DNA of 64,000 bases from Cyanobacteria bacterium P01_D01_bin.156 (lineage in GTDB: Bacteria > Cyanobacteriota > Cyanobacteriia > Phormidesmidales > Phormidesmidaceae). The notes beneath the pieces were generated by a model. It saw only the letters and a list, made by a program, of their open reading frames with translations. It searched no databases and was not told the DNA's origin. Below, piece by piece: positions 18,414 to 38,460 of this stretch (within the stretch, counting starts at the first letter, position 1; each line of letters starts with the position of its first letter). The translations under genes were made by a program, and so were the position numbers. Location: contig JBCCQQ010000032.1 in assembly GCA_039024555.1 (NCBI GenBank), positions 1 to 64,000 on the forward strand, given 5' to 3'.

Positions 18414-18429
18414 TGTAACTAAAGCTACA
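18414..18429 (+). promoter_or_regulatory. NtcA-type binding site upstream of the second GlnT-like gene
   Basis: TGTA-ACTAAAGC-TACA (GTA-N8-TAC). A TACTGT -10-like hexamer sits at 18453, 24 nt after the TAC, slightly longer than canonical spacing. Confidence 0.6.
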
Positions 18430-18484
18430 ACCTCACCCCATTAAGGCTGTTTTACTGTCAGTAAATGCCCAGAGGCCTTAGTGT

Positions 18485-19810: not shown

Positions 19811-19844
19811 TTTGTAAGGTGTTGATGCTGGGCGGCACTTGGTT

Positions 19845-19942
19845 TTCCTTGTCAAGGGGAACCGTCAGGGAGGAGTTTTGAACAGTCTTGCCAGTAGTCG
19901 AGGACCCCTCCGCCTACGACACCTCCCCTTATCAAGGGGAGG
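19845..19942. repeat. GC-rich REP/SDR-like palindromic element
   Basis: TTCCTTGTCAAGGGGAA and CCTCCCCTT-ATC-AAGGGGAGG hairpins in an intergenic gap. Confidence 0.55.
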
Positions 19943-19986
19943 ATTATTTTAGAACTGTATGAATGTGATATTCGCTTCTCAACGTT

Positions 19987-21168: not shown

Positions 21169-21413
21169 CCTGCAAATGGTGGGTAATGATTCCACCATTT
21201 GTTGAAATTTCTTTATGTCCTAAAACGCTCGCAGAAACCGATCCGAAACCTATATAATCGACCCCGCCGCAACCCCAAATCAATGGCACTGAGGATAACC
21301 TAGTACGTTGGGTTGTAGGGCGGCGTTCCGGCCCTGCCCAGGGGGGTTGGGGAACACGGAGGGACCCCAAGCAACACCTTTATCCCACCACCAACATTCC
21401 AAGCCGTTATCCT

Positions 21414-22811
21414 ATGGCCAACATGATATCTGTTATTAACCCCGCAACAGAAAAACTCATCGAAGAAATTCCCGTTGACGATAGTGCTGCCATCACACAA
21501 AAAGTACAACAAGCCCTCAGAGCTCAACCCGCTTGGGCTGCCAAAACCCTTGCAGACCGAATCACCCCGATCCAGACCTTTAGAAATCTACTAATAGAAC
21601 GCGCCGATACCCTAGCCGCAATATTAACCGCTGAAACCGGCAAACCCATCACCCAAGCAAAAAACGAAATCCTCGCCACCCCTCCGCGTATAGACTTTTT
21701 TATAGAAAACGTTGCCCAGGTTCTAGCGGCCCAGCGAGTATACCAAGAACCCTGGTCAGCTATTCCCAGCACCGGACAACTAGAAGAAATCATTACCTAC
21801 GACCCCCTAGGTGTTATCGCCAATATCTCCGCCTGGAACTATCCCTATTTTGTTGGGTCGAATGTGTTTATCCCCGCACTTCTGACTGGCAATGCCGTGG
21901 TGTATAAACCCTCAGAGATTGCGGCAATGACGGGGAATGCGATCGCAGCTCTCCTGCACGAATCCGGTATTCCCGAAGATATCTTTGTTCCCATTATTGG
22001 CACAGGTCTGGCCGGAGCCGCCCTCCTCGAACAACCCATCGATGGCGTTTTCTTCACCGGTTCTTACGCTACCGGGCAGAAGATTGCCATAGCCGCTGCC
22101 CCCAAGCTGATCAAAGTACAGCTAGAACTGGGGGGCAAAGACCCCGCCTATGTGTGTGACGATGTGGATGTGGCTACAGTGGCTGCAGCGTTAGCCGATG
22201 GAGCTTTTTATAACAATGGCCAAAGTTGTTGTGCGGTGGAGAGAATCTATGTACACGCCGACATCTACGAACCTTTTGTTGAAAAGTTTGTGCAAACAGT
22301 GCAAGGGTTTACCCTGGGTGACCCTGCTGACACCGAGACTTACCTAGGCCCCTTGAGCCGTAAACCTCAGCTGTCTGTCATCGAAGAACAGTTACAAGAT
22401 GCTATTGCCAAAGGAGCAAAAGTTCTCTGCGGTGGTCAGCCAGCAGATCGCCCCGGCTGGTATTTTACTCCCACAGTTTTAACCGAGGTCACCCATGAAA
22501 TGGCCATTATGCGCGAAGAAACCTTTGGTCCAGTCATTGGGATTCAACGGGTGGATAGGGATGATCAAGCGATGGCCCTGATGAATGACACCGACTATGG
22601 ACTTACGGCTGCGGTATATAGCTTTGACCGGGAACGGGCGGTGAAAATTTTAGGCCAGGTGAGTAGCGGCAGCGCCTATTGGAACTGTTGCGATCGCGTT
22701 AGCCCTCGGCTTCCCTGGACAGGCCGTAACCACTCAGGCATTGGTTCCACACTGTCTACACTAGGAATCGCTAACTTTTTGCAACCCAGGGGATGGCATT
22801 TAAGGAAATGA
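21414..22811 (+). CDS. NAD(P)-dependent aldehyde dehydrogenase
   Basis: WNYP, FTGS, LELGGKDP, NNGQSCCA and EETFGP. Confidence 0.95.
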   Translation: MANMISVINPATEKLIEEIPVDDSAAITQKVQQALRAQPAWAAKTLADRITPIQTFRNLLIERADTLAAILTAETGKPITQAKNEILATPPRIDFFIENVAQVLAAQRVYQEPWSAIPSTGQLEEIITYDPLGVIANISAWNYPYFVGSNVFIPALLTGNAVVYKPSEIAAMTGNAIAALLHESGIPEDIFVPIIGTGLAGAALLEQPIDGVFFTGSYATGQKIAIAAAPKLIKVQLELGGKDPAYVCDDVDVATVAAALADGAFYNNGQSCCAVERIYVHADIYEPFVEKFVQTVQGFTLGDPADTETYLGPLSRKPQLSVIEEQLQDAIAKGAKVLCGGQPADRPGWYFTPTVLTEVTHEMAIMREETFGPVIGIQRVDRDDQAMALMNDTDYGLTAAVYSFDRERAVKILGQVSSGSAYWNCCDRVSPRLPWTGRNHSGIGSTLSTLGIANFLQPRGWHLRK

Positions 22812-22818
22812 TGTGAGA

Positions 22819-23595
22819 TTAATCAGCCACTTGCATCTCTGATGTGTAGCAGATCCAGTCAGAGCGCGACAGTACTTTACCACAGGCCGCAGGCTGCTGT
22901 TCTTGCCAGTACACAACAAAATCAAAGACTAATAGTGGCATTCCCAATGGAATACTCAAGTAATCGCTCAGTTCATAGTTTGCTGGGACACTGCCTAACT
23001 TCACTTTCCCTGCATTTAGCTGAATGTTATTTGCTTTTAGCGTGCTGTAGGTAAAACTCTTTTGTAATTGTACCGAAAGCGATTGGCCAATGTTTTCAGG
23101 AAAGTAATCTGTTTCCAACGCAATGGGCACATTATCGGCATAGATAATTTTTTTTTGACAGTAAACAGTGGCTTCAGGAGAAACCTGTAAGGTTGATGCT
23201 ATCTCTGCGTTTGTCTGAATCGGGTCATACTGTAAGGATTGGATATGCCCGGTATAGCCTTGTTCCTGTAAGGCAATATCAAAGTGTGTGAGCGGATCGG
23301 CCATAGAAATACTAATCTTTTGACGACCGCTAACAAAACTGCCTTTTCCCCGCTGACTTCTGACTAAACCTTGTTGAATCAGATTAGAGAGCGCTTTACG
23401 AATTGTTGTGCGGCTAACGCCAAAAATCTGACCTAAATCAAATTCACTCGGCAAACGCGCCCCTGGTTCATACTGGCCTGCTTCAATTTTTATCCTTAAC
23501 TGTTCTGCAATAACAATATGCAGCGGTTGCTTGTCTGTACTCGGTTCAAGTAGAACCATAAACGATCTATCATTTCCAGAGATTACTCGAACCAT
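22819..23595 (-). CDS. GntR family (HutC/UTRA) transcriptional regulator
   Basis: LPSEFDL..FGVSRTTIRKAL..L...G...RGKGSFV wHTH plus a UTRA-sized C-terminus. Alternative start at 23559. Confidence 0.92.
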   Translation of the reverse strand: MVRVISGNDRSFMVLLEPSTDKQPLHIVIAEQLRIKIEAGQYEPGARLPSEFDLGQIFGVSRTTIRKALSNLIQQGLVRSQRGKGSFVSGRQKISISMADPLTHFDIALQEQGYTGHIQSLQYDPIQTNAEIASTLQVSPEATVYCQKKIIYADNVPIALETDYFPENIGQSLSVQLQKSFTYSTLKANNIQLNAGKVKLGSVPANYELSDYLSIPLGMPLLVFDFVVYWQEQQPAACGKVLSRSDWICYTSEMQVAD

Positions 23596-23617
23596 ACTAT
23601 AACCTCTGGTCGGTTAG

Positions 23618-24802
23618 TCAATTTGCCGTTGCTGAACCCGATGCCGACGCCCCTACGGGTTGAAAGCGAGCGAGCTTGAACAAACTGGTGTCGTGGGGCG
23701 TACTGTCATGGACAGCCAAATCGGCCAGCATCTTCCCCATGAGTGTGGTGAACTTAAACCCATGTCCAGAGAACCCAGCACCAATAATCACATTGGCATG
23801 GTCAGGATGTTGGTCCACAATAAAATCTTTGTTGGGGGTAAGCGTATAGAGACAACGGCGTGTGCTGATCAGAGGACCCGCCGCACCGGGGATATACTCC
23901 CGAGCAAAATCTCGAATGTGTTCCGTCCACTCCTGACTGGGTGTGTAGTCCACCTCACTGGGGCTATTAACCGTATCCCATCCATAGAATGTGGTGAGTT
24001 TGACGCCGAGCCTGGCATCTTCATGGGGAATACCGTAGGGCATTTCGCCATAGATACCGTTCATATGGGCAAAGAATACCGGAAAGGTTCCTGGGACAAA
24101 GTTGTCAGGGTTGTCGGGTTGGTAAAAGCCCAGCTGACAGGGCATCACCTTGAGCGGTAAATCAATACCTTGGGTGGCCAAGAGTGCTTTGGCCCAGCTA
24201 CCCACGGTAAGAACAATGCGATCGCAGCTAAATACCTCTTTAGCTGTTTGAACCTCCACACCATTTTCTCCAGGCATGACCTTCAGCACAGGCGTTTCAG
24301 CCATGATTTGTGCCCCACGCCCCTGAGCTAAACGTTGATGAGCCAACACACATCGGGATGTGCGCAACAGCCCTGCTTCGGACTGGAACAGCCCGACCAT
24401 GCCATCCTTCAACGTGAACTGGGGATAACGCTGCTGAATATCCGCCTGACTGAGATATTCATACTCCAGCTCAGCCTGATTCATACTGCTTTTAAGCTTC
24501 TGTAACGTAGGCGTATCGGGAAAGCCAAAATCCAGACCCCCGGTTTTTACATAAAGCTGTTCCCCAGCCTCTTCCTGCAGGGCAAACCACAGAGGATAGG
24601 CATCCCGCATCAGATTAATGTAGATGGGGTTGTCGTAGGTGTAGCGAATAACGCGGGAATAGCCGTAGGAACTGCCGTTACGATGGTCCAGCTCGAACTG
24701 TTCGAGCAGTAAAACCCGTTGCCCCGCTTTAGCCAAGTAGTAGGCAGCTGCACTGCCAACACCACCGGCCCCAATGACAATGGCATCAAAATGTTGACCC
24801 AT
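23618..24802 (-). CDS. solA: Monomeric sarcosine oxidase / N-methyl-L-tryptophan oxidase family flavoprotein
   Basis: GAGGVG FAD motif, GSSYGYSRVIR, RCLYT (covalent FAD Cys) and GFSGHGFKF. Confidence 0.85.
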   Translation of the reverse strand: MGQHFDAIVIGAGGVGSAAAYYLAKAGQRVLLLEQFELDHRNGSSYGYSRVIRYTYDNPIYINLMRDAYPLWFALQEEAGEQLYVKTGGLDFGFPDTPTLQKLKSSMNQAELEYEYLSQADIQQRYPQFTLKDGMVGLFQSEAGLLRTSRCVLAHQRLAQGRGAQIMAETPVLKVMPGENGVEVQTAKEVFSCDRIVLTVGSWAKALLATQGIDLPLKVMPCQLGFYQPDNPDNFVPGTFPVFFAHMNGIYGEMPYGIPHEDARLGVKLTTFYGWDTVNSPSEVDYTPSQEWTEHIRDFAREYIPGAAGPLISTRRCLYTLTPNKDFIVDQHPDHANVIIGAGFSGHGFKFTTLMGKMLADLAVHDSTPHDTSLFKLARFQPVGASASGSATAN

Positions 24803-25271
24803 AAATGAATGTTCTCCTCGTTTAAGGGATCGTGGGCATAAGCTTACTGGGCAATTGCTTTTTCAGCCATCGCTGATGTTTTCTAAATGAAAGAGCATTA
24901 GAAACTTGGATATTCGCTTCAGGATAAAGCGAATTTTGCGTGACCTTTGTCTTCATATATACCAGTTGTTATTACATGTATTAAATGTCAAAGAGTTCTG
25001 ATTAAAATCCTATTTTTTGACGATTTAGGCTCTAGTGGCTAATAGATTGAATGTCTGGAGATCTTGAAAATATCTTGATTGGAAAACTATAAAAGTTGCT
25101 TTCAAACTTCAGTCTAGAGTTGTAATTTCCTCTTAGGTAAAGGATTTTACGGTTTATCTAGAATATGTAAGCCGTGCTTTTTGGTTGGCTGTGTTTTTAG
25201 AGAAAGTCTAGAAAATGTCATATTTTTGACACTTTAAATAAAGTTTGAATCCATATTCTGTATTTATAGGA

Positions 25272-25285
25272 CTTGTAATTACAAG
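25272..25285. promoter_or_regulatory. Probable GntR operator
   Basis: Perfect palindrome CTTGTAATTACAAG, with a related copy GTTGTTATTACATG at 24965-24978 in the same divergent promoter region. Confidence 0.55.
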
Positions 25286-25340
25286 CGAGTATTTTTGATT
25301 TTGGTCTAAAACTTGGTCAAGAGTAATTGTCATTATTCTG

Positions 25341-26582
25341 GTGGGGTGCGTGACAATGAGGCAGAGTATGGATTCTCCCTCCGTTCTTTCAGAACCTGTT
25401 AGTGATACTGTCGAATTTCAAGTGTCGGAAACATCTTTAGGGTCCTCTATTGTTTCCCAAAAGAATCATCAATATGGTCTTTCAGCAGAGGCTTATACCT
25501 GTGCTAACTATTTAGAACGAGAACGTCAGACAGTTTTTAGTAACTATTGGGTCTGCGCTGGCTTAGCCTCGGATTTGCCGAATCCTGGGGATGTGTATCC
25601 CACTACGGTGGCGGGTATACCGATTGTTTTGGTGCGCGATCGCAAACGCCCTAATCAATTAGGTGCGCCGCCCCTACGAGCCTTTCACAATATCTGTCGT
25701 CATCGGGGTCTACAGCTAGTTGATAAACCCTGTAATACCAATGGTCGTATCCAATGTCCCTACCACTCATGGACCTATCTGTTAGATGGAACACTGAAAG
25801 GGACTCCTCATTTTGGTGGATACTACAAGGATTCCTACAGTGGGTTTGATCGAGCCAAGCATGGTCTCCTGCCGATTCGATGTGAACAGTGGCTTGACAT
25901 GATTTTTGTCAACCTTTCCGGTGATGCTCCGCCACTGACGGATTACTTGCAACCGGTTATTGAGCGATGGGCAGACTACGACCTGAGCTTACTCAGACAT
26001 GAGCCGCGAGAAGTGGGTCTGCAATGTCATGCTAACTGGAAGCTAGCGGTGGAAAACTTTTCTGAAAGTTATCACCTGACCTGGGTTCACCCGTCCCTTA
26101 ATGATTGTTCGCGCATGGAGGATCACTTTACCTTTGAGGTGGGTGGCCCCCACGTGGGTCAGGGGAGTCTAATGTACAAAAGTGGTGTTCTAGACCAGCG
26201 TTCACTACCCACACTGCCCAATCTAGAAGCCTTAGACAAACAAACCGTTGCCGAATACATTACCGTCTTTCCAAACCTGATGTTAGGGGTCCATCCTGAC
26301 TACTTTTTAGTCTTTTTGGTTAACCCCGTCACTCCCAGTGAATCTGAAGAGCGAATGGCCTTCTATTTTGTCGGCGATGATGCAATGACACCTGAGAATC
26401 GAGCCCTGCGGCATCTGCCTATCGATCTATGGAAAGTTACTAACGATGAAGACATTGAGATGATCGAACGGATGCAAACAGGCCGTCGGTCCCCTGGGTT
26501 TGATGGTGGTCGTTTTTCTCCTGCATTGGAGCAGCCGGTTTATCAGTTTCAACAAGAAATTGCTAAAGCAGTCGGTAAGTAA
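25341..26582 (+). CDS. Rieske non-heme iron oxygenase alpha subunit (choline monooxygenase/glycine-betaine demethylase-like)
   Basis: CRHRG...CPYHSW Rieske motif, NWKLAVENFSESYH..WVH iron site and EDIEMIE. Confidence 0.9.
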   Translation: MGCVTMRQSMDSPSVLSEPVSDTVEFQVSETSLGSSIVSQKNHQYGLSAEAYTCANYLERERQTVFSNYWVCAGLASDLPNPGDVYPTTVAGIPIVLVRDRKRPNQLGAPPLRAFHNICRHRGLQLVDKPCNTNGRIQCPYHSWTYLLDGTLKGTPHFGGYYKDSYSGFDRAKHGLLPIRCEQWLDMIFVNLSGDAPPLTDYLQPVIERWADYDLSLLRHEPREVGLQCHANWKLAVENFSESYHLTWVHPSLNDCSRMEDHFTFEVGGPHVGQGSLMYKSGVLDQRSLPTLPNLEALDKQTVAEYITVFPNLMLGVHPDYFLVFLVNPVTPSESEERMAFYFVGDDAMTPENRALRHLPIDLWKVTNDEDIEMIERMQTGRRSPGFDGGRFSPALEQPVYQFQQEIAKAVGK

Positions 26583-26650
26583 GTGACTAATTAGCTACCA
26601 GAGAACGAGGCCCTCCCGTTTCCCAATCCTCAGGGAGACTAGATCTAAAG

Positions 26651-26674
26651 CCCCCAGAATTGGGGGTTGGGGGC
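26651..26674. repeat. Short GC-rich palindromic dispersed repeat
   Basis: CCCCCAGAATTGGGGG followed by TTGGGGGC, intergenic. Confidence 0.5.
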
Positions 26675-26772
26675 AAATCCCCGGCCGTTTAACAGGCTGT
26701 GTGTATCCCATAAAAGCTTGAGTTCATCTACTTAGTTTCTTTTCCTCTGCCCCTCATATCCCTAAATTTGCC

Positions 26773-29193
26773 ATGAAAACAAGTGCATCTGTCGTCATTA
26801 TCGGTGCGGGTATCGTTGGCTGTAGCACCGCCTATCACCTGGCCAAATTAGGGTGGAAAAATATTGTTGTGGTTGAGCAAGGCCCCTTATTTGCCACTGG
26901 AGGGTCCACATCCCATGCCCCTGGCCTGGTGTTTCAGACAAATCCCTCTAAAACCATGACCCAGTTGGCTAAATACACCGCTGAACTATACAGTCAGCTC
27001 AGCACGGATGAGGGACCCGCTTACTATGCCGTTGGCGGCATTGAAGTTGCCTACACGGCAGACCGGATGCAGGAGCTTAGGCGTAAGCTGGGTTGGGCTA
27101 AATCCTGGGGTGTGGAAGGAGCCTGTCTTCTTAGTCCAGCGGAGGTCAAGGCGAAAGTCCCCCTAATTGATGAAACCAAAATTTTAGGGGGATATTATGT
27201 CCCCACGGATGGCATCGCCAAGGCTCTGCGTGCGGCTGAAGCCCTGGCTAGGGAGGCCGATGAAGGGGCTATATTTTATGGAGAAACTTTGGTCACCGAT
27301 ATTAATGTGGTCGATGACAAGGTACAGGCCGTTATTACCGATAAGGGCCGCATTGAAACCGATAAAGTACTTGTCTGTGCAGGAATTTGGGGACCCCGAG
27401 TCGGTCGAATGGTGGGAGAGATTATTCCCCTAACTCCGGTTCAGCATCAATATGTTAAAACCAGTCCCATCCCTGAACTGGCCGGGATGACAGACGAAGT
27501 TACATTACCCATGATTCGGCACCAAGACCATGCCATGTATTTTCGGCAGCATGGTGACTGCTGGGGCATTGGTTCGTATCAACATAAGCCCCTCCTGGTG
27601 GACCCAGATAATATTTTGCCCTATGCAGAAGCGCCGGTCATGCCATCGGTGATGCCTTTTACTGAAGAGCATTTTACCCCTGCCTGGGAATCGACCAAGG
27701 AGTTGTTTCCGTCGATGGCAAATGCAGAACTCACCTACAAGATAAATGGCATGTTCTCCTTTACTCCGGACAGTGGTTCCGTCGTTGGAGAATCTTCTAA
27801 AACGAAGGGCTTTTGGGTTGCTGAGGCGGTGTGGGTAACCCACGGTGGCGGTGTGGGTAAAGTGGTGGCAGACCTGATGACCACTGGTGTTAGTAGCTTT
27901 GACCTACACGAAATGGATATTCATCGTTTTCCCGATGTTTATAAGGGAACGGACTACATCCTCAAGTCTGGGGCACAGCAGTATGACGAGGTATACGACA
28001 TTATCCACCCGCTGGATCAGCAAACCCATTCACGAGAGTTGCGGGTTAGTCCCTTTTACCCGCGTCTTAAAGAGTTGGGGGCACAGTTTGTCGTCAGTGC
28101 AGGTTGGGAACGACCTCAATACTTTGAGACTAATGCCGCTCTCTTAGAGGATTATTCTATTCCCCAGCGTCAGGGATGGGCGGCCAAAAACTGGTCTCCG
28201 ATTCAAGGGGCTGAGCACTTGGTCACCCGCGATCGCGTTGCCCTTTACGATTTGACTCCCTTTGCCAAATTTGAAATCACTGGCCCTGGCGTAGTCGAGT
28301 ATTTACAAAATCTCTGTGCCAACAATATAGACAAACCGATTGGCAAGGTGATTTACACCGCCATGTTAGATACTAATGGCGGCATCATGTGTGATTTGAC
28401 CGTCAGCCGGTTAGGGCCTCAAAAATACTGGGTGGTTACGGGAGGTTCGGTGCATGGTCATGATTTAGCTTGGATGCGATCGCATTTACCATCCGATAAT
28501 TCTGTTCAGATTGCAGATATATCGTCTAGTTACTGCTGTGTTGGCTTATGGGGGCCAAACGCTGAGGCAGTTTTGCAGTCTCTTACCAGCGTTAATGTAT
28601 CAAAGTCAGCCTTTGGGTTCTTTACCAATCAGGCATTCTACATTGGCAACATTCCAGTCCTAGCGTCGCGTGTGTCCTATGTCGGTGAAGAGGGCTGGGA
28701 GATCTATTCTTTAACAGAATCAGGCTTAAAGCTATGGGATATGCTATGGGCTGCGGGGCAAGAGCATGGCATGATTGCAGCTGGTATGGGGGCATTTGAC
28801 ACCCTCCGTTTAGAAAAGGGCTTTCTACTGTGGGGCAGTGATATTCACACCGAGTACGACCCTTATGAAGCAGGGTTAGGCTTTGCTGTTAAACCCAATA
28901 AGGGAGACTTTATTGGTAAAGATGCCCTACTGCAACGGCAACAATATTCTAGTCGACAGCTTTGCTATCTGACCCTGGATGATCCGACAGCTGTGGTGAT
29001 GGGAAAAGAACCGGTGATTGCCAGTGATGGCAAAGTGTTGGGGTATGTAACTAGTGCTGGCTATGGCTATAGTCTGGGGCGATGTGTTGCCTATGCTTAT
29101 TTGCCATTGGGATATACCACTCCAGGCACAGAGGTAACTATCGAATATTTTGATCAGGCATTGGCTGCCAAAGTTGTCGAGACTCTTATTTAG
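26773..29193 (+). CDS. Dimethylglycine oxidase/dehydrogenase-like FAD oxidoreductase with GcvT (folate-binding) domain
   Basis: GAGIVG, GGSTSHAPG (covalent-FAD His), GWERP, RVSYVGEEGWEI and LRLEKGF; 806 aa. Confidence 0.9.
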   Translation: MKTSASVVIIGAGIVGCSTAYHLAKLGWKNIVVVEQGPLFATGGSTSHAPGLVFQTNPSKTMTQLAKYTAELYSQLSTDEGPAYYAVGGIEVAYTADRMQELRRKLGWAKSWGVEGACLLSPAEVKAKVPLIDETKILGGYYVPTDGIAKALRAAEALAREADEGAIFYGETLVTDINVVDDKVQAVITDKGRIETDKVLVCAGIWGPRVGRMVGEIIPLTPVQHQYVKTSPIPELAGMTDEVTLPMIRHQDHAMYFRQHGDCWGIGSYQHKPLLVDPDNILPYAEAPVMPSVMPFTEEHFTPAWESTKELFPSMANAELTYKINGMFSFTPDSGSVVGESSKTKGFWVAEAVWVTHGGGVGKVVADLMTTGVSSFDLHEMDIHRFPDVYKGTDYILKSGAQQYDEVYDIIHPLDQQTHSRELRVSPFYPRLKELGAQFVVSAGWERPQYFETNAALLEDYSIPQRQGWAAKNWSPIQGAEHLVTRDRVALYDLTPFAKFEITGPGVVEYLQNLCANNIDKPIGKVIYTAMLDTNGGIMCDLTVSRLGPQKYWVVTGGSVHGHDLAWMRSHLPSDNSVQIADISSSYCCVGLWGPNAEAVLQSLTSVNVSKSAFGFFTNQAFYIGNIPVLASRVSYVGEEGWEIYSLTESGLKLWDMLWAAGQEHGMIAAGMGAFDTLRLEKGFLLWGSDIHTEYDPYEAGLGFAVKPNKGDFIGKDALLQRQQYSSRQLCYLTLDDPTAVVMGKEPVIASDGKVLGYVTSAGYGYSLGRCVAYAYLPLGYTTPGTEVTIEYFDQALAAKVVETLI

Positions 29194-29411
29194 AGCGATT
29201 TCCTAGAGGTACTACCCTTATTAAGTTGTTGAATTAGATTTTAGAATAGGTGAATAGTGTAATGTTTACTGAAACGGTTGCGAGCTCGTCAGTGCTTGAC
29301 TCTATTGAACAGGCCAAAATTTTTCAGGCATTGGTTCTGAACTTTCTAAACCAGGCATAGCTAAATTTCTGCAGCCAAGGGCATGGTATTTAAGAAAATG
29401 TAAATAATTGT

Positions 29412-30443
29412 TCAGAGATGTTTTTCAACTTTAAGAATATGCTTAATCAAAGGTAGATAAAGTGTGTTGTCAAGGTGATTGAGATACCAGCTTTCATAAT
29501 CACCAGTGACTAGGTGTTCCTGAATTAGTCGTGATTCTTCTAAAAGAACCCAAAGATTATGAGTCGCGCGATTCCGGAAGCCATGGACTAAATTTGCTCT
29601 CAATCCTTCGGTACCATATCTCTGACAAGCTGGACAAGGACAATTCTCAAGGATTTTCCATTCCCGCTTATCAGGTTTTCGCCCACGCCAACTACCCAAC
29701 TCTGCGACCATTCGATCTCCCGTTCCAGGTAGTTGAACTATTCCCCGTGCAGCACGATTGCGCCATCCACTAGAATCTCCTGAATTAATTCCTAGCAATG
29801 TTGCAATATGTAATGTAACTGTCCCACCTATTCCAAAGACATGAATTTTTTTATCCTTAAACTCATTACGTACATGCAAAAGGCTCTCTAGAATTTTTTG
29901 TGGATGCATTGCTTTTGGAGCTTTAAGGAGGTTAGGTACAATGCCACCCAAGGCAATTGATTCTTTCCTCAAAAGCGATTTGTAAGATTTTAGACGACTA
30001 ATATATTCCTCTAAAACACTGCTGATATGGATAACTGGAATATATTTCCCTTGCCAGTAACGACGGTTCATATCCATTGTGAGATGAAGGCATTCTTGTT
30101 GTTCAGCTGCCGTCATTTTAGGTGTAGGAATAAAGTCTTGTGGAATAGGGTACCAATCAGGTTTGGCGTATTTCACAAATTCGGAATACTCTTTAACTGG
30201 ATTTTCTCCACCATGAGTAATAAAGTAAAAGGAACCATTATCTAGATAAATTTTTACATGGTTAGGTACTTCTAATAACTCGTGAAGTCCTTTTTCCATT
30301 GCTTGAGCCCTACGTTTAGGCATTTTATGAAAATCGGCATAAGAGACCATTATTGCTTGTAAGTTTGGTAAATAATATTCAGACTCAGAACTCCAAACAC
30401 GTGGGTTTAACGATCTCAAAGTTATGCCTGCAACTATTTGCAC
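29412..30443 (-). CDS. tRNA/DNA-guanine transglycosylase (TGT)-fold protein, DpdA/arcTGT-like, without PUA domain
   Basis: YLDNGSF, PQDFIP, IPVIH, ALGGIVP, IHVFGIG, NSGDSSGW and Zn site CPCPAC...THN. GTG start with AGGA upstream. Confidence 0.8.
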   Translation of the reverse strand: MQIVAGITLRSLNPRVWSSESEYYLPNLQAIMVSYADFHKMPKRRAQAMEKGLHELLEVPNHVKIYLDNGSFYFITHGGENPVKEYSEFVKYAKPDWYPIPQDFIPTPKMTAAEQQECLHLTMDMNRRYWQGKYIPVIHISSVLEEYISRLKSYKSLLRKESIALGGIVPNLLKAPKAMHPQKILESLLHVRNEFKDKKIHVFGIGGTVTLHIATLLGINSGDSSGWRNRAARGIVQLPGTGDRMVAELGSWRGRKPDKREWKILENCPCPACQRYGTEGLRANLVHGFRNRATHNLWVLLEESRLIQEHLVTGDYESWYLNHLDNTLYLPLIKHILKVEKHL

Positions 30444-30454
30444 AAAAAATATTC

Positions 30455-32059
30455 CTAAACTAACTCTGATAAAAAAGCTCTATAACGAGCCATAATACGA
30501 TCTTCTGTTTGTTCTGTTATACATTCTCCCACATCTTTAGAAAAGTTATGGGCTTGGAGAGTTACACCTGGCACTAGATAAGTCACAGGCTCATCAGACA
30601 TAAATGAATGGTCTTCATCAACGTCTGGTGTCGCATACTGAAGGGAAGCTAATATTTTGTGTACAACAGTCTCTGGAGATCCTAGAGAGTCATGATGGAA
30701 AAAATCATATCTTGGCAAACGTTGTTCAGGACTTTTTGAATGGCCCATAAAAAACATATATAAATGAGCCAAATTACACAACTGACGAAATGGATTTATA
30801 TTTATGTCAATTTCTATCTTGCTTTCATAGCGATTAAAATATGAATTCAAATTATTTAAATTTGTTTTGGTATTAAGATTAGCTCTTGTTGTGAAAGAGC
30901 GCCGAATTAAACAGGTATAAATTGTCTGATTTAGATTATTACCAATAAACTCTGGAGAGGCAAGCAATAGTGTCATAGCCTGTCCATCATTAAGAGTGTA
31001 GTTTCCAGCTTCCCACTGATGATCAATGTATTTTGAAATATACCAATCAATTGCTGCGCTGTACACTTTTAGCTGTACACTTTTAGCCACACCACAGTAG
31101 ATAATATTTGAAGCACTAGAAGCTTGTAAACAGCTCAATAGCTCTCGAATAGCTTTTCGTGTGAACTTACCTCGACGATTATCGATAACAAAATTATCTA
31201 AATAAGCATCCTGAGGAAATAGGCTTCCGTCCCTAAGAACAATATCAGGTGGCCTTCTATCTGGATTTAAGAGAAAGTTGTGATCAAAAGTATATTGGCC
31301 CACATCCATCGCTGAAGCTAAGCATCTTTGGTAATCCTCTGGCTGCAGTTCTTCTTGATACGAAGGATCAATTAACATCCATTGCAATAATTCATCGTCA
31401 GGACGAGGATTAAATAAGGCTTCATATTTTGATCTTCCCTCTTGTATCTTTAAAAGAGTTCCCGCAGCATTATTTAAAACAAATGGAACACGCCTAGTAA
31501 AAAAGTTTGCTGGAATAGGAACAGCACTACAATGTTGACTTACATCTGAAGAACCAATCAGGGGTATAAGGTTATTCCATACAGTTTGATCAACACTAAT
31601 TTGATTCAGAAAATACTTTCCAACAATATGGTTTTCTAGGTGTTCACGAATTGCTTCAATATCAAATGGCTCAACTCTCCAGGAGCTTCCTCCTCTACGT
31701 GGAGCATGTATCTTAATTTGCTCGTAGGTCATACCAAAACCACGAATAGCGACCTGTGTCAGTAGTCTTGATAATCTAGGGGCTTTTGTTGAATCAGATT
31801 CTATAGTCTTCTTCAGGTCAGTTAGAAAATCTAAATATAATTCTCGTGGGTCTTGTTTTAATAATTGCTCCCGTGCAGCAGAAATCGTCGTTTGCCAGGC
31901 CCTTTCTGAGTCAACGATTTGACGCATGACGTCAAGTGTTCGAGTTACGGGGTCATAGCTAACGATACTGTCCTGATCGAAAACTTTTGCAGAGCCCATT
32001 ATCGAATTAAAATCTAGAAACAATTGACCCGAATCATCGCCATTCTGTTTTCTAGGCAT
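30455..32059 (-). CDS. NurA-like nuclease with N-terminal extension
   Basis: GSSDVS, LRDGSLFP, CGVAKS and C-terminal LQAHNFSK match NurA motifs in the expected order; lies directly downstream of herA. Confidence 0.7.
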   Translation of the reverse strand: MPRKQNGDDSGQLFLDFNSIMGSAKVFDQDSIVSYDPVTRTLDVMRQIVDSERAWQTTISAAREQLLKQDPRELYLDFLTDLKKTIESDSTKAPRLSRLLTQVAIRGFGMTYEQIKIHAPRRGGSSWRVEPFDIEAIREHLENHIVGKYFLNQISVDQTVWNNLIPLIGSSDVSQHCSAVPIPANFFTRRVPFVLNNAAGTLLKIQEGRSKYEALFNPRPDDELLQWMLIDPSYQEELQPEDYQRCLASAMDVGQYTFDHNFLLNPDRRPPDIVLRDGSLFPQDAYLDNFVIDNRRGKFTRKAIRELLSCLQASSASNIIYCGVAKSVQLKVYSAAIDWYISKYIDHQWEAGNYTLNDGQAMTLLLASPEFIGNNLNQTIYTCLIRRSFTTRANLNTKTNLNNLNSYFNRYESKIEIDININPFRQLCNLAHLYMFFMGHSKSPEQRLPRYDFFHHDSLGSPETVVHKILASLQYATPDVDEDHSFMSDEPVTYLVPGVTLQAHNFSKDVGECITEQTEDRIMARYRAFLSELV

Positions 32060-32065
32060 AAGTGT

Positions 32066-33670
32066 TTACGAGTGAGATTTTAATTGTGTGATTTTTGGTA
32101 TCCATGCAGATTGCATCTCATCAAAAATATCAGGTGTACTCCCCCCTTCAGAGTCTTTAGTATTTCGCAGTCTAATCTTAATAGGGATAGTATGCTTCAC
32201 GCTTTCATAAGTACCAGAAAGCAAGCATGTACCTCGAGGCATTTTGGGTAAGGCCCGTAGCATTTCATCTGTAGCATCCGCCTTTACGCCTTTGATAGCT
32301 TCAAGTTGATCAGGTTCCAGAGCAAAAACTAATCTAGTATTACATTGTCGAATCGTGCTCTTGTCAATATCTACTGGGCTTTGAGTTAAGAGCACCATAC
32401 AAATTCCATGGTGTCTTCCAATTCTGACGCCCTCTCGAATGATTTGCTTACATGGACTGCCTGAGCCTTCAGGGACAAAAAGATGAGCTTCATCAATCAC
32501 TGCTACATAGGGCGGAATATGTCCCTTCAACCGCAAAGTTTGCAATTCGCGTAGCACAGCAGTAGCTATTGGCTGCAGCTGCGAGGAAGTTAAGTTTTTA
32601 CAATTAATTGATAAGCACGGATACATTGACTTACGCCAGTCTTCTTTAGCGAAACCATTACCAAAAATAGGATTTCTTCTTAATGATCTTGTACGGCTAA
32701 TTGCCATAGCAATACTAGATGTTTTGTTAGTAAGATCTTGGCCAACTTCTTCCATTTTCTCTAGTAGATTATCTATAGAGAATTTAGCAATACCATCAGA
32801 TGCCAGTTCTATCTTTAATTCGGAAAATGCTCTTGCTGCAATATCTCGCTGTAGTTCAGTAGTTGCAGAAGGTAACAGAGTTAATAATTCAGATTCGGTC
32901 AAAGACGAAATTCGAATTGTAAAATCCTCACCTGGACGTTTAATGGTTCCTCCTAGCGATGAAACTAGCTTTGAATATTCATCTTGAGTATCAATAAAAA
33001 TCACAGGTAAATTATGTTTCTGAATTAGTTCTTCAGCCAGAACACCCATGGCATAACTTTTTCCGCTACCTGTTGTTCCACAGATAAAAAAGTGCCGCTG
33101 AATTGCAGCTTTCTTCAGAGTGATTTTTGTAACAGTACCACTAGTAGTATGACCAATGGATAACCCATCAGCTGATTCCTGTTCTAAGCCTAAAGTTTGT
33201 ACTATTTCCTTGATATCAGCAACAAATACTTCTGCACCAGAATTAGGTAAGTTTTGAGGGGCTCTCGTTTCGAATTCAGAACCATTTCCATTTTTCGAAA
33301 TCTCTTTTTGAAAAATCTCTTCAATTAAGTCAGCTTCAATTAAACGAAAAATCTTTGTGCTATCCTCCTCTCCAGGATAGTTTCTGGGCATCTTCAAAGT
33401 ATCTCTAACACCTATACGCTCCACACTCTCATTTGGATTACACTCATATGCACTCCGAACACGTCCAATAAGCGTTGTTTCCTCATTGCGTTGAACGGGA
33501 ATACGCACAAGTGTTCCTGGTTTTAGATCTTTTCCAGCCTTCAGCTTGATTTTTACCGTCTCGAATGTAGGTGTATTTTGATCAGAGATCACTGTCCCTA
33601 CAGACTCTTGAGTAACTTTTCCATTCGATTTATAAGAGTGGGTAGAGGTTGTAGTACTAGTGTCAGTCAT
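32066..33670 (-). CDS. HerA/FtsK-family ATPase with N-terminal HAS-barrel-like region
   Basis: RHFFICGTTGSGKS (Walker A), FIDTQDEY, VIDEAH (Walker B), IGRHHG, TQSP and QCNT. Confidence 0.9.
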   Translation of the reverse strand: MTDTSTTTSTHSYKSNGKVTQESVGTVISDQNTPTFETVKIKLKAGKDLKPGTLVRIPVQRNEETTLIGRVRSAYECNPNESVERIGVRDTLKMPRNYPGEEDSTKIFRLIEADLIEEIFQKEISKNGNGSEFETRAPQNLPNSGAEVFVADIKEIVQTLGLEQESADGLSIGHTTSGTVTKITLKKAAIQRHFFICGTTGSGKSYAMGVLAEELIQKHNLPVIFIDTQDEYSKLVSSLGGTIKRPGEDFTIRISSLTESELLTLLPSATTELQRDIAARAFSELKIELASDGIAKFSIDNLLEKMEEVGQDLTNKTSSIAMAISRTRSLRRNPIFGNGFAKEDWRKSMYPCLSINCKNLTSSQLQPIATAVLRELQTLRLKGHIPPYVAVIDEAHLFVPEGSGSPCKQIIREGVRIGRHHGICMVLLTQSPVDIDKSTIRQCNTRLVFALEPDQLEAIKGVKADATDEMLRALPKMPRGTCLLSGTYESVKHTIPIKIRLRNTKDSEGGSTPDIFDEMQSAWIPKITQLKSHS

Positions 33671-33690
33671 ATATCACCTAAAATCATAGT

Positions 33691-34443
33691 TTAATCAAGA
33701 TCACAATGAACCGGAATCCCTAACTTACTTAGCGTTCGTCTAGCAATATCTGTATGAAAGCTACTTACTGAAAGGCCCGTGATTTGACTAACTAGCCATT
33801 TAGGTGAGATGCGTGTTTCATCAATCGATACATACCAAGATTGATAACATGTAGCTTTTTTATCTCCGGCAATAATTCCTCGCCTTGCTACATCTAATAT
33901 TTGATTTTGGGTTAAGTTAACCTCAATACCTTTGATGCATACTTTCTTATCTCTAGTATTTGTAGTTGAAACGCTATTTGTTTGTAATCGCAAGTTATTA
34001 CCATAGAGCCAAGTATGTAAGGTAGATAATTTTCTACCCATACCACCAGCAGCAACGCTAACTTTTAAGCTATTTGGAATAATAGCTTCGTACCCACTAA
34101 GCGCACCAAAATAGGCTTTTCCGAGACAGATTAGAAGATTCGTATAAACCTTTTTGTCAAGGAGATTCATAAATTGCGTAATAACTTGAAGATGTAAAGC
34201 TGTAGCCTGCTCTTTTGTTATGCGCTGATCATAGTAAGGTAATGGGTAATCACTAGAAATTAAACCGTACTTTGCTGAAAGAACCACTACATCTAAAGGC
34301 AAAATTGAACTTTGCCTTAAGTATCGACGTAGCAGGCGAAACGTAGGCCCATCGTAGCGATCAATAGCTGGCAAAGTTCCTTCGTCAAGTCGTTTACGTT
34401 GAGAACAACCTAGCAATAGTAGTCTTGACAAGTTTTCAACCAA
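33691..34443 (-). CDS. DUF6884/YaaA(DUF328)-like protein fused to a small C-terminal putative DNA-binding domain
   Basis: LLLGCSQRK..PAIDRYDGPTF..VVLSAKYGLI..YYDQRI, with C-terminal WYVSIDETRISPKWLVSQITGL..FHT..ARRTLSKLG. TTG start. Confidence 0.65.
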   Translation of the reverse strand: MVENLSRLLLLGCSQRKRLDEGTLPAIDRYDGPTFRLLRRYLRQSSILPLDVVVLSAKYGLISSDYPLPYYDQRITKEQATALHLQVITQFMNLLDKKVYTNLLICLGKAYFGALSGYEAIIPNSLKVSVAAGGMGRKLSTLHTWLYGNNLRLQTNSVSTTNTRDKKVCIKGIEVNLTQNQILDVARRGIIAGDKKATCYQSWYVSIDETRISPKWLVSQITGLSVSSFHTDIARRTLSKLGIPVHCDLD

Positions 34444-34451
34444 AGAACTGA

Positions 34452-34481
34452 TCAGCTAATGTAAGTACTTACATTAGCTGA
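34452..34481. promoter_or_regulatory. Perfect 30-bp palindrome directly upstream of the HerA/NurA/TGT operon
   Basis: TCAGCTAATGTAAGT|ACTTACATTAGCTGA. Confidence 0.7.
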
Positions 34482-34590
34482 CTAACCCTTAGACGATATT
34501 CTTCAAAATTATCACTGGCCAAAAAACTTAATTTACTTTTAAAGATTTAACTCTAAAGTAATTATTTTCTATGGGATTTCGAAAAATATC

Positions 34591-35370
34591 TTATACATGT
34601 TGCCTTCTCCAATCTTCTAGCCAAACTGCATCTTCATTACTCAGAGGAGGAATTGGTTCTTCATCATAATCAACCACCAGATCATATCCTGACTGATCAT
34701 AAACATCGCCCAGCAATATCTGTAAGTTAACGATAGGTTCCAATTCCCTTTCTCTCAACGGTAAAGGAAAAGCCGGGATTGGTTCTTGTAGATTAAACGC
34801 ATATAAGCTCGCCTGAGGGCGATTTAAACTATCACTGACCAAAATTCGATAGTGCGTCTTTATCTCGTCAGGTAATTGCACAATTGGGGGCCACTGTCGC
34901 AATAAATCAATTTCCACCAAACTTGTCGGACTTGCTAGAATCGTTTGGCGTTTGGCCTCATAGTTTCGGCGTCCTTCTCCAGGGCGTTTATTTGTCGGAG
35001 ATAAAACTTCGATCACTGTTACTACTTCACTTGTAGCAACATCGCGGATTTCTAAGTACCCCTGACGTACAACATCAGGCATCGGTAAATCGACTACGAT
35101 TGGCTGGGCTACAGCAACATCGTGGACTAATTCTGAATTAGCCGGTATCTGCTTACGCTTCGCTTTGTGCACCGTTACATCAGGAATTCCTACCAGGACT
35201 GAGTTTTGCTCCTCTGTCTGATAAATTGCTTCCTCAACCACCACGCGATACTTAGGCCGTAGCTGTGGGCCTAAGCTAATGGCAATGGCCGTAATCAACC
35301 GATGATGAAAGTTCGGCCAGGATCGGGGATGCTCCAGATATGGATCCATCCCAGGTAGAGGGGAAGGCAT
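34591..35370 (-). CDS. DUF4058 family protein (PD-(D/E)XK-like)
   Basis: MPSPLPGMDPYLE N-terminus, PDV, IEVLSPTNK and VEIDLLR. ATG at 35370 preferred. Confidence 0.85.
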   Translation of the reverse strand: MPSPLPGMDPYLEHPRSWPNFHHRLITAIAISLGPQLRPKYRVVVEEAIYQTEEQNSVLVGIPDVTVHKAKRKQIPANSELVHDVAVAQPIVVDLPMPDVVRQGYLEIRDVATSEVVTVIEVLSPTNKRPGEGRRNYEAKRQTILASPTSLVEIDLLRQWPPIVQLPDEIKTHYRILVSDSLNRPQASLYAFNLQEPIPAFPLPLRERELEPIVNLQILLGDVYDQSGYDLVVDYDEEPIPPLSNEDAVWLEDWRRQHV

Positions 35371-35473
35371 ATGTGTATTCCCGTTGACAGTACTCCTCAA
35401 TTCTAAGCAACTGAGCAAAATTGGACTCTAAATCTGTGCAACTCAGAGTTCGTATCTAAATAATGGATATTAC

Positions 35474-35809
35474 TTAAGCAACTCCGTACCCGGTATAAGG
35501 ACGTTTATACGCAGGATGCAATCCCAGAACAATATCGTCTTTAGGGATATTCATATCAATGAGTTCCCGACCGATATCAATATCAGTGGTGTTTTGCTGC
35601 AGCCAGATTTTGCCGTTTTTTATATCGAAGTGCAAAACGGTATGGTAAACCCGACTGAGTCCATTCCAGCCAACACGCATCAGTTGGTAATGATCGCGGA
35701 TAGTATCGAAGAATAGTTCGTTCTCAACGTCTTCATTTTGAGCTTGAAACCGGCTATGTCGCTCTAATAAAGTCTGAATGGCTGTTCGGTAAAGATCTAG
35801 CTTATCCAT
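35474..35809 (-). CDS. xisI: XisI family protein
   Basis: DHYQLMRVGW, HFDIKNGKIWLQQNTTD and IVLGLHP...RPYTGYGVA. Confidence 0.92.
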   Translation of the reverse strand: MDKLDLYRTAIQTLLERHSRFQAQNEDVENELFFDTIRDHYQLMRVGWNGLSRVYHTVLHFDIKNGKIWLQQNTTDIDIGRELIDMNIPKDDIVLGLHPAYKRPYTGYGVA

Positions 35810-36213
35810 TGCACGATCTCCTCAGAAATTGGGTTGTACACAATTATCCTAAGTTGATGTCGCTCTATGGCAACTTGAGCGAAGCGGCTCTGGAAAAAGG
35901 TTTCATAGATTTCAAATGGAACAGCTAGGTAAAGTTGCCGGTCAGGCTCTTTTGCTTCCAGCATAATTCTGTAATTCAGGAACTGACCTAGAGCGGTATG
36001 AAAATCGCTGATGGGGGACGAGCTAATAAAGCTTTTTATTTCAACAGCAATTTTTTCTTCATCCCGTTCGGCAGCGATCAAACGTTCAGCAGCCAGGTCA
36101 ATTTTGACTTTGACTTCTTCCCATGCCAGCTCTAGCGGATCGTTGGAAATATACCACTGTTCTTTTTCAAGGCCACGTTTGACAGCTTCGTGGAATATGT
36201 CTTTTGCACTCAT
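35797..36213 (-). CDS. xisH: XisH family protein
   Basis: MSAKDIFHEAVK, IDLAAERLIAAER, IAVEIKSF and ALGQFLNYR; overlaps xisI. Confidence 0.92.
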   Translation of the reverse strand: MSAKDIFHEAVKRGLEKEQWYISNDPLELAWEEVKVKIDLAAERLIAAERDEEKIAVEIKSFISSSPISDFHTALGQFLNYRIMLEAKEPDRQLYLAVPFEIYETFFQSRFAQVAIERHQLRIIVYNPISEEIVQWIS

Positions 36214-36278: not shown

Positions 36279-37298
36279 TCAACTGTTGAGCAATTTCTCA
36301 ACTGCTTGCTTAATGAATTCCTCATCCTCAGCATTCTGATAGGGGTTACCAGCTCGATGTCCCCAAATAGAAGGAATCACGACATATTGACTAGTCGGAA
36401 TCAGCTGTGCCTCAGCCTCGCAATCTTCGGGGGTAAAGTAAAGGTCCGTACTCGCAGGCATTACCAACGTTTTTGCCGTAATTGCCCCCATCGCTTTTTC
36501 ATAATCCCCTTCGTAGATCGGATTATCCCCTACATCACAGTGCAGCCACGTCTCAATCATCGCTAGCAAATTATGAGGGTCCCGCCGTCGATAGCCTGCT
36601 TCCCAGCTACGTAATAAGTAATCCTCTAAGGACTCATAGCCCCATTCCAAATACAGCTTGGCTTTGTAATAGGGCTGTGATGCTGCCCAGCTGGCATAGA
36701 TCTGGGTAAATGTATGAAATCCTTTTTCCGGAACGCCTTCAAACCGTTCCCCATTCCAGGCTGGGTCGCCCTGCAAAGCTGCCCTCAAACTATATAGAAA
36801 AATCCGATTGTGATCCGTGGTTTTCGCCGTGCCGCATAGGGCGGCAATTCGTTGCACTCGCTCAGGATATAGCGCTCCCCAGTGATAGCCCTGCTGTGCT
36901 CCCATGGACCAGCCGTATACGAGGGCTAACTGCTCAATTTCCAAACTATCCAACAGTGCCGCCTGAGCCCGCACATTGTCATAGTGAGTAAAGTAAAAAC
37001 CTAGTTTCTTAGCCGCCTCACAGTTACTGGGCGATGTGGAGAGACCATTGCCAAACATGTTTGGCATAATCACACACCAATCTGTTGGGTCTAAAATCCC
37101 CCCTGGACGCACTAACCAGTCCACATCGCTATGTTGTGCCCCATAGGATGTGGGATACAGCACCACATTACTGCGTTCAGCATTTAACTCTCCATAGGTT
37201 TGGTAAATTATCTCCACTTCAGGTAATGTTTCTCCACACTGCAGAGAGAAGTCCTTCAATACAAAACTCTTTGGAGATGTCATTGTTGATGCCTGCAA
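36279..37298 (-). CDS. MetX/homoserine O-acetyltransferase-like alpha/beta hydrolase
   Basis: YQTYGELN, FGNGLSTSPSN, GWSMGAQQ, DLYF and WGH. Confidence 0.85.
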   Translation of the reverse strand: MQASTMTSPKSFVLKDFSLQCGETLPEVEIIYQTYGELNAERSNVVLYPTSYGAQHSDVDWLVRPGGILDPTDWCVIMPNMFGNGLSTSPSNCEAAKKLGFYFTHYDNVRAQAALLDSLEIEQLALVYGWSMGAQQGYHWGALYPERVQRIAALCGTAKTTDHNRIFLYSLRAALQGDPAWNGERFEGVPEKGFHTFTQIYASWAASQPYYKAKLYLEWGYESLEDYLLRSWEAGYRRRDPHNLLAMIETWLHCDVGDNPIYEGDYEKAMGAITAKTLVMPASTDLYFTPEDCEAEAQLIPTSQYVVIPSIWGHRAGNPYQNAEDEEFIKQAVEKLLNS

Positions 37299-37330
37299 CT
37301 AACAATCTTATGCATAAGCTAACTATTCAT

Positions 37331-37359
37331 CCCCTCCCTGGAGGGGCAACGGGGTGGGT
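37331..37359. repeat. Short GC-rich palindromic dispersed repeat
   Basis: CCCCTCCCTGGAGGGG-CAACGGGGTGGGT, intergenic. Confidence 0.5.
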
Positions 37360-37383
37360 TTTTCAACACATGTAACCGAGCGA

Positions 37384-38343: not shown

Positions 38344-38371
38344 AGGATTAGCTAATGTAAGCTTTTATGGC

Positions 38372-38420
38372 ACTTGTTATAACAAGTAAAAGTTAGCACA
38401 CCCTATCTGGTATAACAAGT
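38372..38420. promoter_or_regulatory. Tandem GntR operator sites
   Basis: Perfect palindrome ACTTGTTATAACAAGT (38372-38387) and second copy ATCTGGTATAACAAGT (38405-38420), between the divergent desaturase-like and gntR genes. Confidence 0.7.
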
Positions 38421-38460
38421 CTACGCAATATTTTGGTTTATCCTGACATAAGCTTGCCCG

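Follow-up and report, generated by a model that had tools for sequence, protein, structure and literature searches.

A guanine transglycosylase paralogue joined to DUF6884 and HerA–NurA genes in a cyanobacterium: a putative compact, DpdB-less relative of the Dpd system

The Dpd system of Salmonella Montevideo modifies DNA through DpdA, DpdB and DpdC and restricts it through DpdD–K (PMC10164549, PMC5699537). Its mode of restriction and the dependence of DpdA on an ATPase have yet to be explained, and an island of 11 genes makes both questions difficult to dissect. Insertion without DpdB has a precedent in phage 9g, whose dpdA alone is reported to give dPreQ0 in E. coli, and the DNA of STSV2, which encodes DpdA and an ArcS homologue, carries dCDG (PMC10516641). 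Two further relatives of the tRNA-guanine transglycosylase (TGT) have been placed in defence. Cap10 of type IV CBASS is described as a TGT-fold protein that keeps a catalytic Asp but not the Zn site and has a modified CD-NTase as its binding partner (bioRxiv 2025.04.06.647259). BREX-related capture (BRC; PMC12839542) is a predicted defence locus in which a TGT homologue accompanies a HerA/FtsK motor, PglZ, BrxA/B/C-like proteins and a GNAT protein, without DpdB; in the main text of that report no DpdC homologue is described and NurA is never mentioned.

The window analysed here is a stretch of 64,000 nucleotides from Cyanobacteria bacterium P01_D01_bin.156. It contains a minus-strand run of four genes, in the order DUF6884, HerA, NurA-like and TGT (gaps of 20, 6 and 11 bp), with the TGT gene last. 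The features are as follows.

29412..30443, minus strand: TGT/DpdA-like guanine transglycosylase (GTG start, 343 aa); sites D68, D103, H139, pocket loop G166–L172, F203, nucleophile D223 and Zn ligands C268/C270/C273/H295; PUA absent
29928..29948, minus strand: codons for GGIVPNL (G166–L172), the predicted preQ0-selective loop
30455..32059, minus strand: putative divergent NurA-type nuclease, the type A partner (534 aa; 11 bp separate its stop codon from the start of the TGT gene)
32066..33670, minus strand: HerA/FtsK-type ATPase translocase (534 aa; Pfam DUF87 91.5 bits, HerA_C 37.3 bits; PADLOC HerA E 6e-34)
33691..34443, minus strand: DUF6884 protein, YaaA/DpdC-like, with motifs CxxxK and SAxxG and a C-terminal SCO5918/ScoMcrA_N-like head (250 aa; Pfam 44.2 bits)
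34452..34481, no strand assigned: perfect palindrome of 30 bp, lying 8 bp ahead of the first gene
29349..34627, no strand assigned: extent of the insertion, from low GC and an empty site in a congener (G408)

The TGT belongs to a conserved clade of transglycosylases that has no name, and the cassette is probably a variant of the Dpd kind. It shares with Dpd a TGT paralogue that stands beside a canonical tgt, lacks PUA, and has the Zn site, a His at the Gln position and a preQ0-type loop; it also shares a DUF6884/DpdC-like partner, an occasional yhhQ or queC, and location on a mobile island. In contrast to Dpd, its 343-residue TGT forms a separate clade, DpdB and DpdD–K are lacking, HerA–NurA, SbcCD or a Z1 helicase is present, and the DUF6884 protein has an extra head domain. 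The phage-type enzymes (9g DpdA1 and STSV DpdA; PMC6884629, PMC10516641) resemble the TGT in their His-x-(G/S) and DSSxW patterns and work without DpdB, which the cassette also lacks, and the pairing of DpdA with an ArcS homologue in STSV2 can be counted as a likeness to the TGT–DUF6884 pair. Unlike DpdA1, the TGT is cellular, keeps all four Zn ligands and is tied to a motor–nuclease block. Archaeosine TGT (arcTGT; Pyrococcus horikoshii, 1iq8) has the closest fold, with a GG-h-VP loop, a stacking Phe and the Zn site in common, whereas the window protein lacks C1, C2 and PUA, has His in place of Q169 and sits in a bacterial mobile cassette.

The literature search gave no locus nearer than BRC. 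The BRC markers PglZ, DUF6079, STAND NTPase and DUF4007 are absent from the four window genes and their recurring neighbours. No description of the cassette was found in the literature on HerA, NurA, transglycosylase and deazaguanine that the search covered, most subscription papers lying outside it, nor in the accessible text of work joining dpdA, dpdC and HerA; a preprint on YprA does not mention DpdA, TGT, HerA or NurA.

The Pfam TGT family matches the 343-residue protein at 38.4 bits (cut-off 26.3, E 1e-9) and is the sole Pfam family matched up to E 1. The AF2 model (pLDDT 90.6) has arcTGT as its top structural match (Z 29.8, RMSD 2.6 over 309 residues, 21% identity), followed by bacterial Tgt (25.0), DpdA 7ui4 (24.1), QTRT2 (22.7) and Cap10 (17.5). 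Residues 1–343 superpose on residues 34–359 of 1iq8, the catalytic domain only, so that the first-pass annotation was right to describe the protein as lacking PUA. The hallmarks of the superfamily are present, namely the TIM barrel, two catalytic Asp residues, a base-reading Asp and the C3H Zn site. Scores fall below the cut-offs of all four models of named subfamilies or of TGTs in general: 17.8 bits for bacterial tRNA Tgt (TIGR00430; cut-off 306.75), 37.9 for archaeosine TGT (TIGR00432; 350), which is nevertheless the best NCBIfam model, 23.1 for bacterial DpdA (NF041059; 200) and 37.7 for tgt_general (47.6). The best PHROG match is the 9g family, phrog_887, at 48.5 bits; 9g itself scores 331.5. 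No fused longer form was found among 5016 candidates of 670–2000 aa, which is weak evidence.

The motifs that first drew attention to the protein are present (DNGSF, residues 68–72; PVIH, 136–139; GDSSGW, 222–227), as is the Zn site (CPCPAC, 268–273, with H295). Among 207 distinct family sequences (120 database proteins plus locus ORFs of at least 300 aa), D68, D223 and H295 are kept in all 207, N69, H139 and each of C268, C270 and C273 in 206, and D103 in 205, while loop positions G166, V169, P170 and L172 are invariant; the motifs are therefore not due to chance. Two of the quoted residues vary: S71 is a strain-level feature (Ser in 27, Ala in 180 of the 207), and G222 is unique to the window copy (Gly in 1, Val in 176).

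The most telling residues are D103 and the GGIVPNL pocket loop, both absent from the earlier description. The active site of DpdA is formed by D95, F99, D130, H181 and D256, with a preQ0 loop of the form GGhsbb (PMC10164549). Profile alignments to 7ui4 and 1iq8 map these onto D68, F72, D103, H139, D223 and GGIVPN, GGIVP aligning with GGVVP of arcTGT and GGMVP of 7ui4; this correspondence supports a Dpd-like reading. The hallmarks of bacterial Tgt, a QG motif and the GGL(A/S)V preQ1 loop, are replaced by PVIHIS and GGIVPN. The departures in the motifs had been taken as signs of a different base, a proposal that finds no support, because a His at the Gln site (H139, equivalent to DpdA H181) together with a GGIVP loop fits the published preQ0 signature of DpdA and arcTGT (PMC10164549). 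Departures specific to the clade do exist: N69 replaces Ser/Cys, the residue after H139 (G182 in DpdA) is I, V, T or A in 207/207, N171 stands where the DpdA loop has Leu, and the Zn spacing is X21H, not X22H. After D223, W227, R228, R230 and R244 are invariant, and the segment, with 10 basic and 5 acidic residues, is predicted to contribute to DNA binding.

The protein was proposed not to be the housekeeping queuine TGT, and the genome bears this out: a canonical tgt lies on another contig (C3; 511 bits), against the 17.8 bits of the window protein with TIGR00430. The search for a canonical tgt and queCDE elsewhere in the genome found both. In genome searches, all matches to QueC, QueD, QueE, QueF and YhhQ lie off the window contig (C32), in keeping with the reported lack of que genes around the cassette, and the host has a preQ0 supply: queD-queE-queC on contig C10 (the QueE match does not reach the E. 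coli-type cut-off), queF on C22 and yhhQ on C74. No canonical DpdA was found in the source genome. All 18 carrier genome entries tested (one genome being represented twice) have a canonical tgt, and none has a third PF01702 match, a model that missed the TGT paralogue itself in one of the 18.

Family profile searches identify 1495 of 2957 candidate proteins at E ≤ 0.001. The profile is present in 9 of 401 cyanobacterial genomes, and the eight of the same 401 that have canonical DpdA do not overlap with these nine. It also occurs in 4 of 104 genomes of the class of a Rubrobacteraceae genome, two of the copies being partial. Named carriers are mostly cyanobacteria, the cultured Nodosilinea LEGE 07088, Scytonema hofmannii PCC 7110 and Aulosira laxa NIES-50 among them, and one copy is on a plasmid. 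Two trees, built without arcTGT and Cap10 sequences, recover the family as a single clade that excludes Tgt, bacterial DpdA and 9g-type DpdA (SH-aLRT 97 and 100). A sister relationship to phage 9g DpdA (SH-aLRT 90, on a very long branch) disappeared when five phage rows were added. AU tests reject none of four deep placements (p 0.30–0.73), giving 0.65 for a position as sister to bacterial DpdA and 0.30 as sister to bacterial Tgt. The nearest profile is an uncharacterized PUA-less arcTGT-like group (E 6e-65), and hhalign gives E 5e-17 for bacterial DpdA, 3e-16 for phage DpdA and 1.5e-5 for bacterial Tgt. Among phage records the top matches are the STSV1/STSV2 proteins (E 2e-7). One phage contig (L108:9100-10918) encodes a TGT 78% identical to that of the window, with a HerA-like fragment before it, on a piece of 39% GC that is flanked by two direct repeats of 175 bp; the contig has repeated PAPS-reductase gene triplets, and the piece is either an insertion or an assembly chimera.

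An arcTGT-like catalytic domain might instead put preQ0 into tRNA or another RNA, with DUF6884 replacing the C1/ArcS domain. The structural ranking (Z 29.8, against 24.1 for DpdA), the best NCBIfam model and the unrejected position beside bacterial Tgt, in trees that lack arcTGT, are all compatible with RNA modification. Yet the TGT has neither PUA nor C2, which arcTGT uses to bind tRNA (PMC5699537), it carries His for Gln, all its constant partners are DNA enzymes, a canonical tgt is always present, and its profile is far closer to the DpdA groups than to bacterial Tgt; we consider an RNA substrate very unlikely. The partner genes make a DNA substrate likely, and to that extent the suggestion of action on DNA stands, while its companion, use of a different base, is not supported. 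The TGT is quite probably a DNA-acting 7-deazaguanine insertase.

The first gene of the cassette also speaks for the Dpd-like reading. hhalign relates the window DUF6884 protein to the DpdC-position domains of dpdA loci (97.9%, E 4e-13), and its C13 and K17 are kept in 36/36 cassette versions. The family is described in the Pfam paper as YaaA-like and DNA-binding, with CxxxK and LSAxxG motifs, and is equated with dpdC in the GATOR-GC preprint. Residues 165–250 match SCO5918 in the ESM Atlas (TM 0.73); this C-terminal SCO5918/ScoMcrA_N-like head of 85 residues is missing in some loci. Against the Dpd-like reading, the likeness to PADLOC DpdC is weak (E 0.003), and the family includes YfjM, reported to bind abasic and RNA-base lesions. 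DUF6884 is fused N-terminally to canonical DpdA in seven of eight cyanobacterial dpdA loci and split from it in the eighth; such fusions make up the canonical cyanobacterial and Paenibacillus DpdA loci L119–L127, L132 and L140. Several of these fusion loci adjoin a second short TGT-like ORF, which in Nostoc lies between two helicases.

The nuclease candidate has no Pfam NurA match. Its ESM Atlas features agree with NurA clusters (0.94), as do 10/10 of the best family matches, and SDVS and DGSLFP motifs are invariant in 9 rows; the AF2 model, from this 9-row alignment, has a pLDDT of 44. The NurA call also leans on sister cassettes, in which the corresponding position is taken by proteins that Pfam recognizes as NurA, such as the type B partner (33.1 bits, cut-off 21), and hhalign finds no mutual match among the three NurA-position profiles (types A, B and C). 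A perfect 14-bp tandem duplication (31058–31085) lies inside this ORF and leaves the reading frame intact.

Neighborhoods were compared in 105 clustered loci (15 loci, a further 9 from the survey of the phylum with the window's own locus left out, the best 80 of 252, and one more), of which 103 gave a TGT ORF. Collapse at 95% gave 86 clusters, 37 of them long enough; in Microcoleus, types A and B end up in a single cluster. In this set, with its best 80 of 252, a DNA motor occurs in 41 and DUF6884 in 38 of the 44 loci whose upstream sequence extends for 4.5 kb or more (DUF6884 in 31/37 after collapse). Of the six loci without DUF6884, one (L099) has a divergent version, and two (L014, L033) are long type C operons truncated at 10 kb; the type C layout of the plasmid copy starts with DUF6884. 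Four effector types can be distinguished.

Type A: HerA–NurA (the window cassette)
Type B: a different NurA–HerA
Type C: sigma factor, IrrE-like (IrrE/CapP-like) peptidase, NurA, HerA-like protein, SbcD and SbcC
Type Z: SF2/Z1 helicase, without a recognized nuclease

Among the 37 clusters, in a set again including the best 80 of 252, type B accounts for 18, A and C for 7 each and Z for 2, with 3 having none; 32 have a HerA-type and 31 a NurA-type protein. Mapped on a TGT tree of 79 rows, effector type switches 23 times, against a minimum of 3 and 39 after shuffling. Between Microcoleus copies of types A and B, the TGTs are 94–96% identical and the HerAs 26% identical over 122 aa. The DGQHR motif of DpdB is absent from every ORF of the 105 loci in a motif search. 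No PADLOC model for DpdD–K is matched by the four window proteins, and the recurring neighbors are HerA, NurA, SbcCD and Z1. Since Salmonella DpdA is reported to require DpdB (PMC10164549), the missing DGQHR motif counts against the Dpd-like reading, as does the placement of the TGT outside bacterial and 9g-type DpdA in both trees and its failure against the DpdA model.

Genes for preQ0 supply join the cassette in some relatives. YhhQ occurs in 9/86 clusters and QueC in 3/86 (in the set that includes the best 80 of 252), at most 65 bp from a cassette gene or overlapping it. Pfam confirms YhhQ in all six scanned of 10 YhhQ loci and QueC in 3/3. The YhhQ proteins form two subfamilies, 32–37% identical over their full length, and the loci are not nine independent events, because most fall in one part of the TGT tree. 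YhhQ imports preQ0 and is reported to co-occur with DNA-modification genes (PMC5372724, and the GATOR-GC preprint). The QueC copies are full-length and canonical (206–246 bits), and one carrier (G417) keeps a second full QueC elsewhere in its genome.

A lone QueC in the operon (3/86 clusters) recalls type IV CBASS, in which Cap10 shows that a TGT fold can serve defence (bioRxiv 2025.04.06.647259), and would suit a TGT that reads a deazaguanylated protein and thereby controls HerA–NurA. In Cap10, as described there, the Zn site is lacking and Lys stands at the His position, and its Z score of 17.5 is well below those of the TGTs. The window cassette has no CD-NTase, no partner begins with the NDG acceptor motif M(G/S)G(G/S)G, the QueC copies are canonical, and most loci have no QueC, all of which leaves such a protein reader scarcely probable.

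The same supply genes bear on the direction of the chemistry. The first-pass annotation had left two routes side by side, preQ0 taken from host Que genes or modified guanines excised from phage DNA, and the first is favored here, as 12/86 clusters have a gene for a preQ0 transporter or an additional QueC attached to them. Under the second route the TGT and DUF6884 would recognize dPreQ0, dADG or dG+ in phage DNA and excise the base or stall on it, with HerA–NurA or SbcCD destroying that DNA, starting at the lesion. A 7-cyano base would suit the pocket no less in DNA than in free form, the DUF6884 head domain is also found on McrB-type AAA proteins, the lesion binding reported for YfjM would be apt, and swapped effectors suit communication through a DNA lesion; glycosylases attacking deazaguanine phages are known from a preprint, although they have the HhH fold. 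Excision, however, needs neither importer nor extra QueC, the two Asp residues required for a complete exchange never vary, and TGT chemistry appears poorly suited to removing 7-deazaguanines because preQ1 insertion by TGT has been called irreversible (PMC3660597). Restriction of modified DNA by this route is thus judged unlikely.

Taken with the partners, the distribution of the cassette points to a likely role in defence. GC content over its four genes is 38.4%, compared with 47.1% for the genome. In congener G408, contig C113 joins matches to window positions 29348 and 34628 with 87 bp between them, an empty site, and DNA of the four genes is not among the matches listed in 12 congeners (65–100% complete). 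Presence in 9/401 genomes, the empty site, the plasmid copy and one copy beside BREX genes indicate mobility and patchiness of the kind expected in the Dpd-like reading. In the BREX-associated copy (L099:9295-16048) the divergent DUF6884 gene runs on the other strand, and BrxA-, BrxB- and BrxC-like genes follow immediately. No flanking direct repeats of note surround the window cassette.

These features also weigh on a division of labor in which TGT and DUF6884 modify DNA, for instance as protection of a mobile element against restriction, and HerA–NurA or SbcCD clear covalent adducts and breaks. The partners amount to the classic Mre11–Rad50–HerA–NurA end-processing set, type C adds a sigma factor and an IrrE/CapP-like peptidase, and type Z is a helicase without a recognized nuclease, all of which would suit repair. 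Patchy spread, an empty site and frequent exchange of partners are, by contrast, typical of defence loci, and no such repair block adjoins dpdA in the canonical dpdA loci examined. Marking combined with repair therefore seems improbable.

We regard it as somewhat better than an even chance that the cassette is a compact 7-deazaguanine modification–restriction system related to Dpd but without DpdB. By analogy with DpdA, the TGT would flip guanine out of DNA, form a covalent intermediate at D223 and insert preQ0 made by host queDEC or imported by YhhQ. DUF6884, on its homology and fixed linkage, would act like DpdC on the inserted base, probably yielding ADG. The ATP motor (HerA, or the SF2–Z1 helicase in type Z) may replace DpdB, or may be unneeded for marking, as with phage 9g DpdA. 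HerA–NurA, with SbcCD in type C, might then degrade unmarked incoming DNA from ends or from breaks at unfinished exchange sites, the weakest step of the scheme. HerA–NurA of T. kodakarensis is reported to degrade both strands from any end, and an antiviral role has been proposed for it (PMC12977600).

A nuclease that specifically reads the mark is hard to reconcile with an effector swap on TGTs that are 94–96% identical. Self/non-self discrimination is the gap in the scheme: HerA–NurA, a generic end-nuclease, is not known as a reader of base marks. The free swapping of effectors suggests that the signal passes via the state of the DNA rather than by protein contact, a consideration that also helps the excision and repair alternatives. 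A possible but rather doubtful elaboration of the Dpd-like reading is that the TGT acts as both writer and trigger: on host DNA the exchange of G for preQ0 would be completed and locked by DUF6884, while on unmarked DNA covalent or abasic intermediates would pile up and be passed to a generic end-degrader, be it one of the two HerA–NurA types, SbcCD–HerA–NurA or the Z1 helicase. It would explain the free swap of unrelated effector blocks on near-identical TGTs and, if true, would mean restriction without a sequence-specific nuclease. Related PUA-less TGTs of haloarchaeal plasmids stand beside real DpdA, which counts against the Dpd-like reading in that a protein of this kind is not necessarily the writer. 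Besides DpdA and DUF6884, these loci (L129:6946-13737 and L134:4335-12827) encode the additional PUA-less TGT, which is related to the window family, a BrxD-like ATPase, and YhhQ or queD/queE. A Natrinema plasmid unit (L137:7321-10447) follows the same logic with another motor, combining DUF6884, a TGT-like protein and an ATP-binding protein that is not HerA by profiles.

If the Dpd-like reading is correct, the family would extend the DNA transglycosylases by a subfamily outside bDpdA and DpdA1–4, would give bacterial HerA–NurA a defined defence role, and would enlarge the range of bacteria in whose DNA 7-deazaguanine is to be expected, among them bacteria that searches requiring dpdB miss. 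A three- or four-gene version with natural effector swaps makes both questions about Dpd directly testable in a laboratory strain.

A promoter scan of the cassette was at chance level (15 vs. 16.6). Among the sequencing runs listed, no RNA run contains the sequence, and the single DNA run that does may be its source. The palindrome at 34452..34481 is a possible operator or terminator. Its halves occur once in the genome, it is not conserved upstream of related DUF6884 genes, and only 4 of 51 such genes have any upstream palindrome (arms 7–9 bp). Just left of the cassette, 29238–29400 is a decayed, 71% identical copy of the 3' end of an aldehyde dehydrogenase gene (21414–22811), and in G408 a comparable sequence lies at the empty site. 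Genes for DUF4058, XisI and XisH (34591–36213) lie directly upstream. From translations, with only the GcvT protein scanned, 14073–29193 and 36279–39189 form a large amine/methylamine-type catabolic region, comprising two glutamine synthetase-like genes, an amidotransferase, an amino-acid carrier, alcohol and aldehyde dehydrogenases, a sarcosine-oxidase-like gene, a Rieske oxygenase, a GcvT-family oxidase and GntR regulators.
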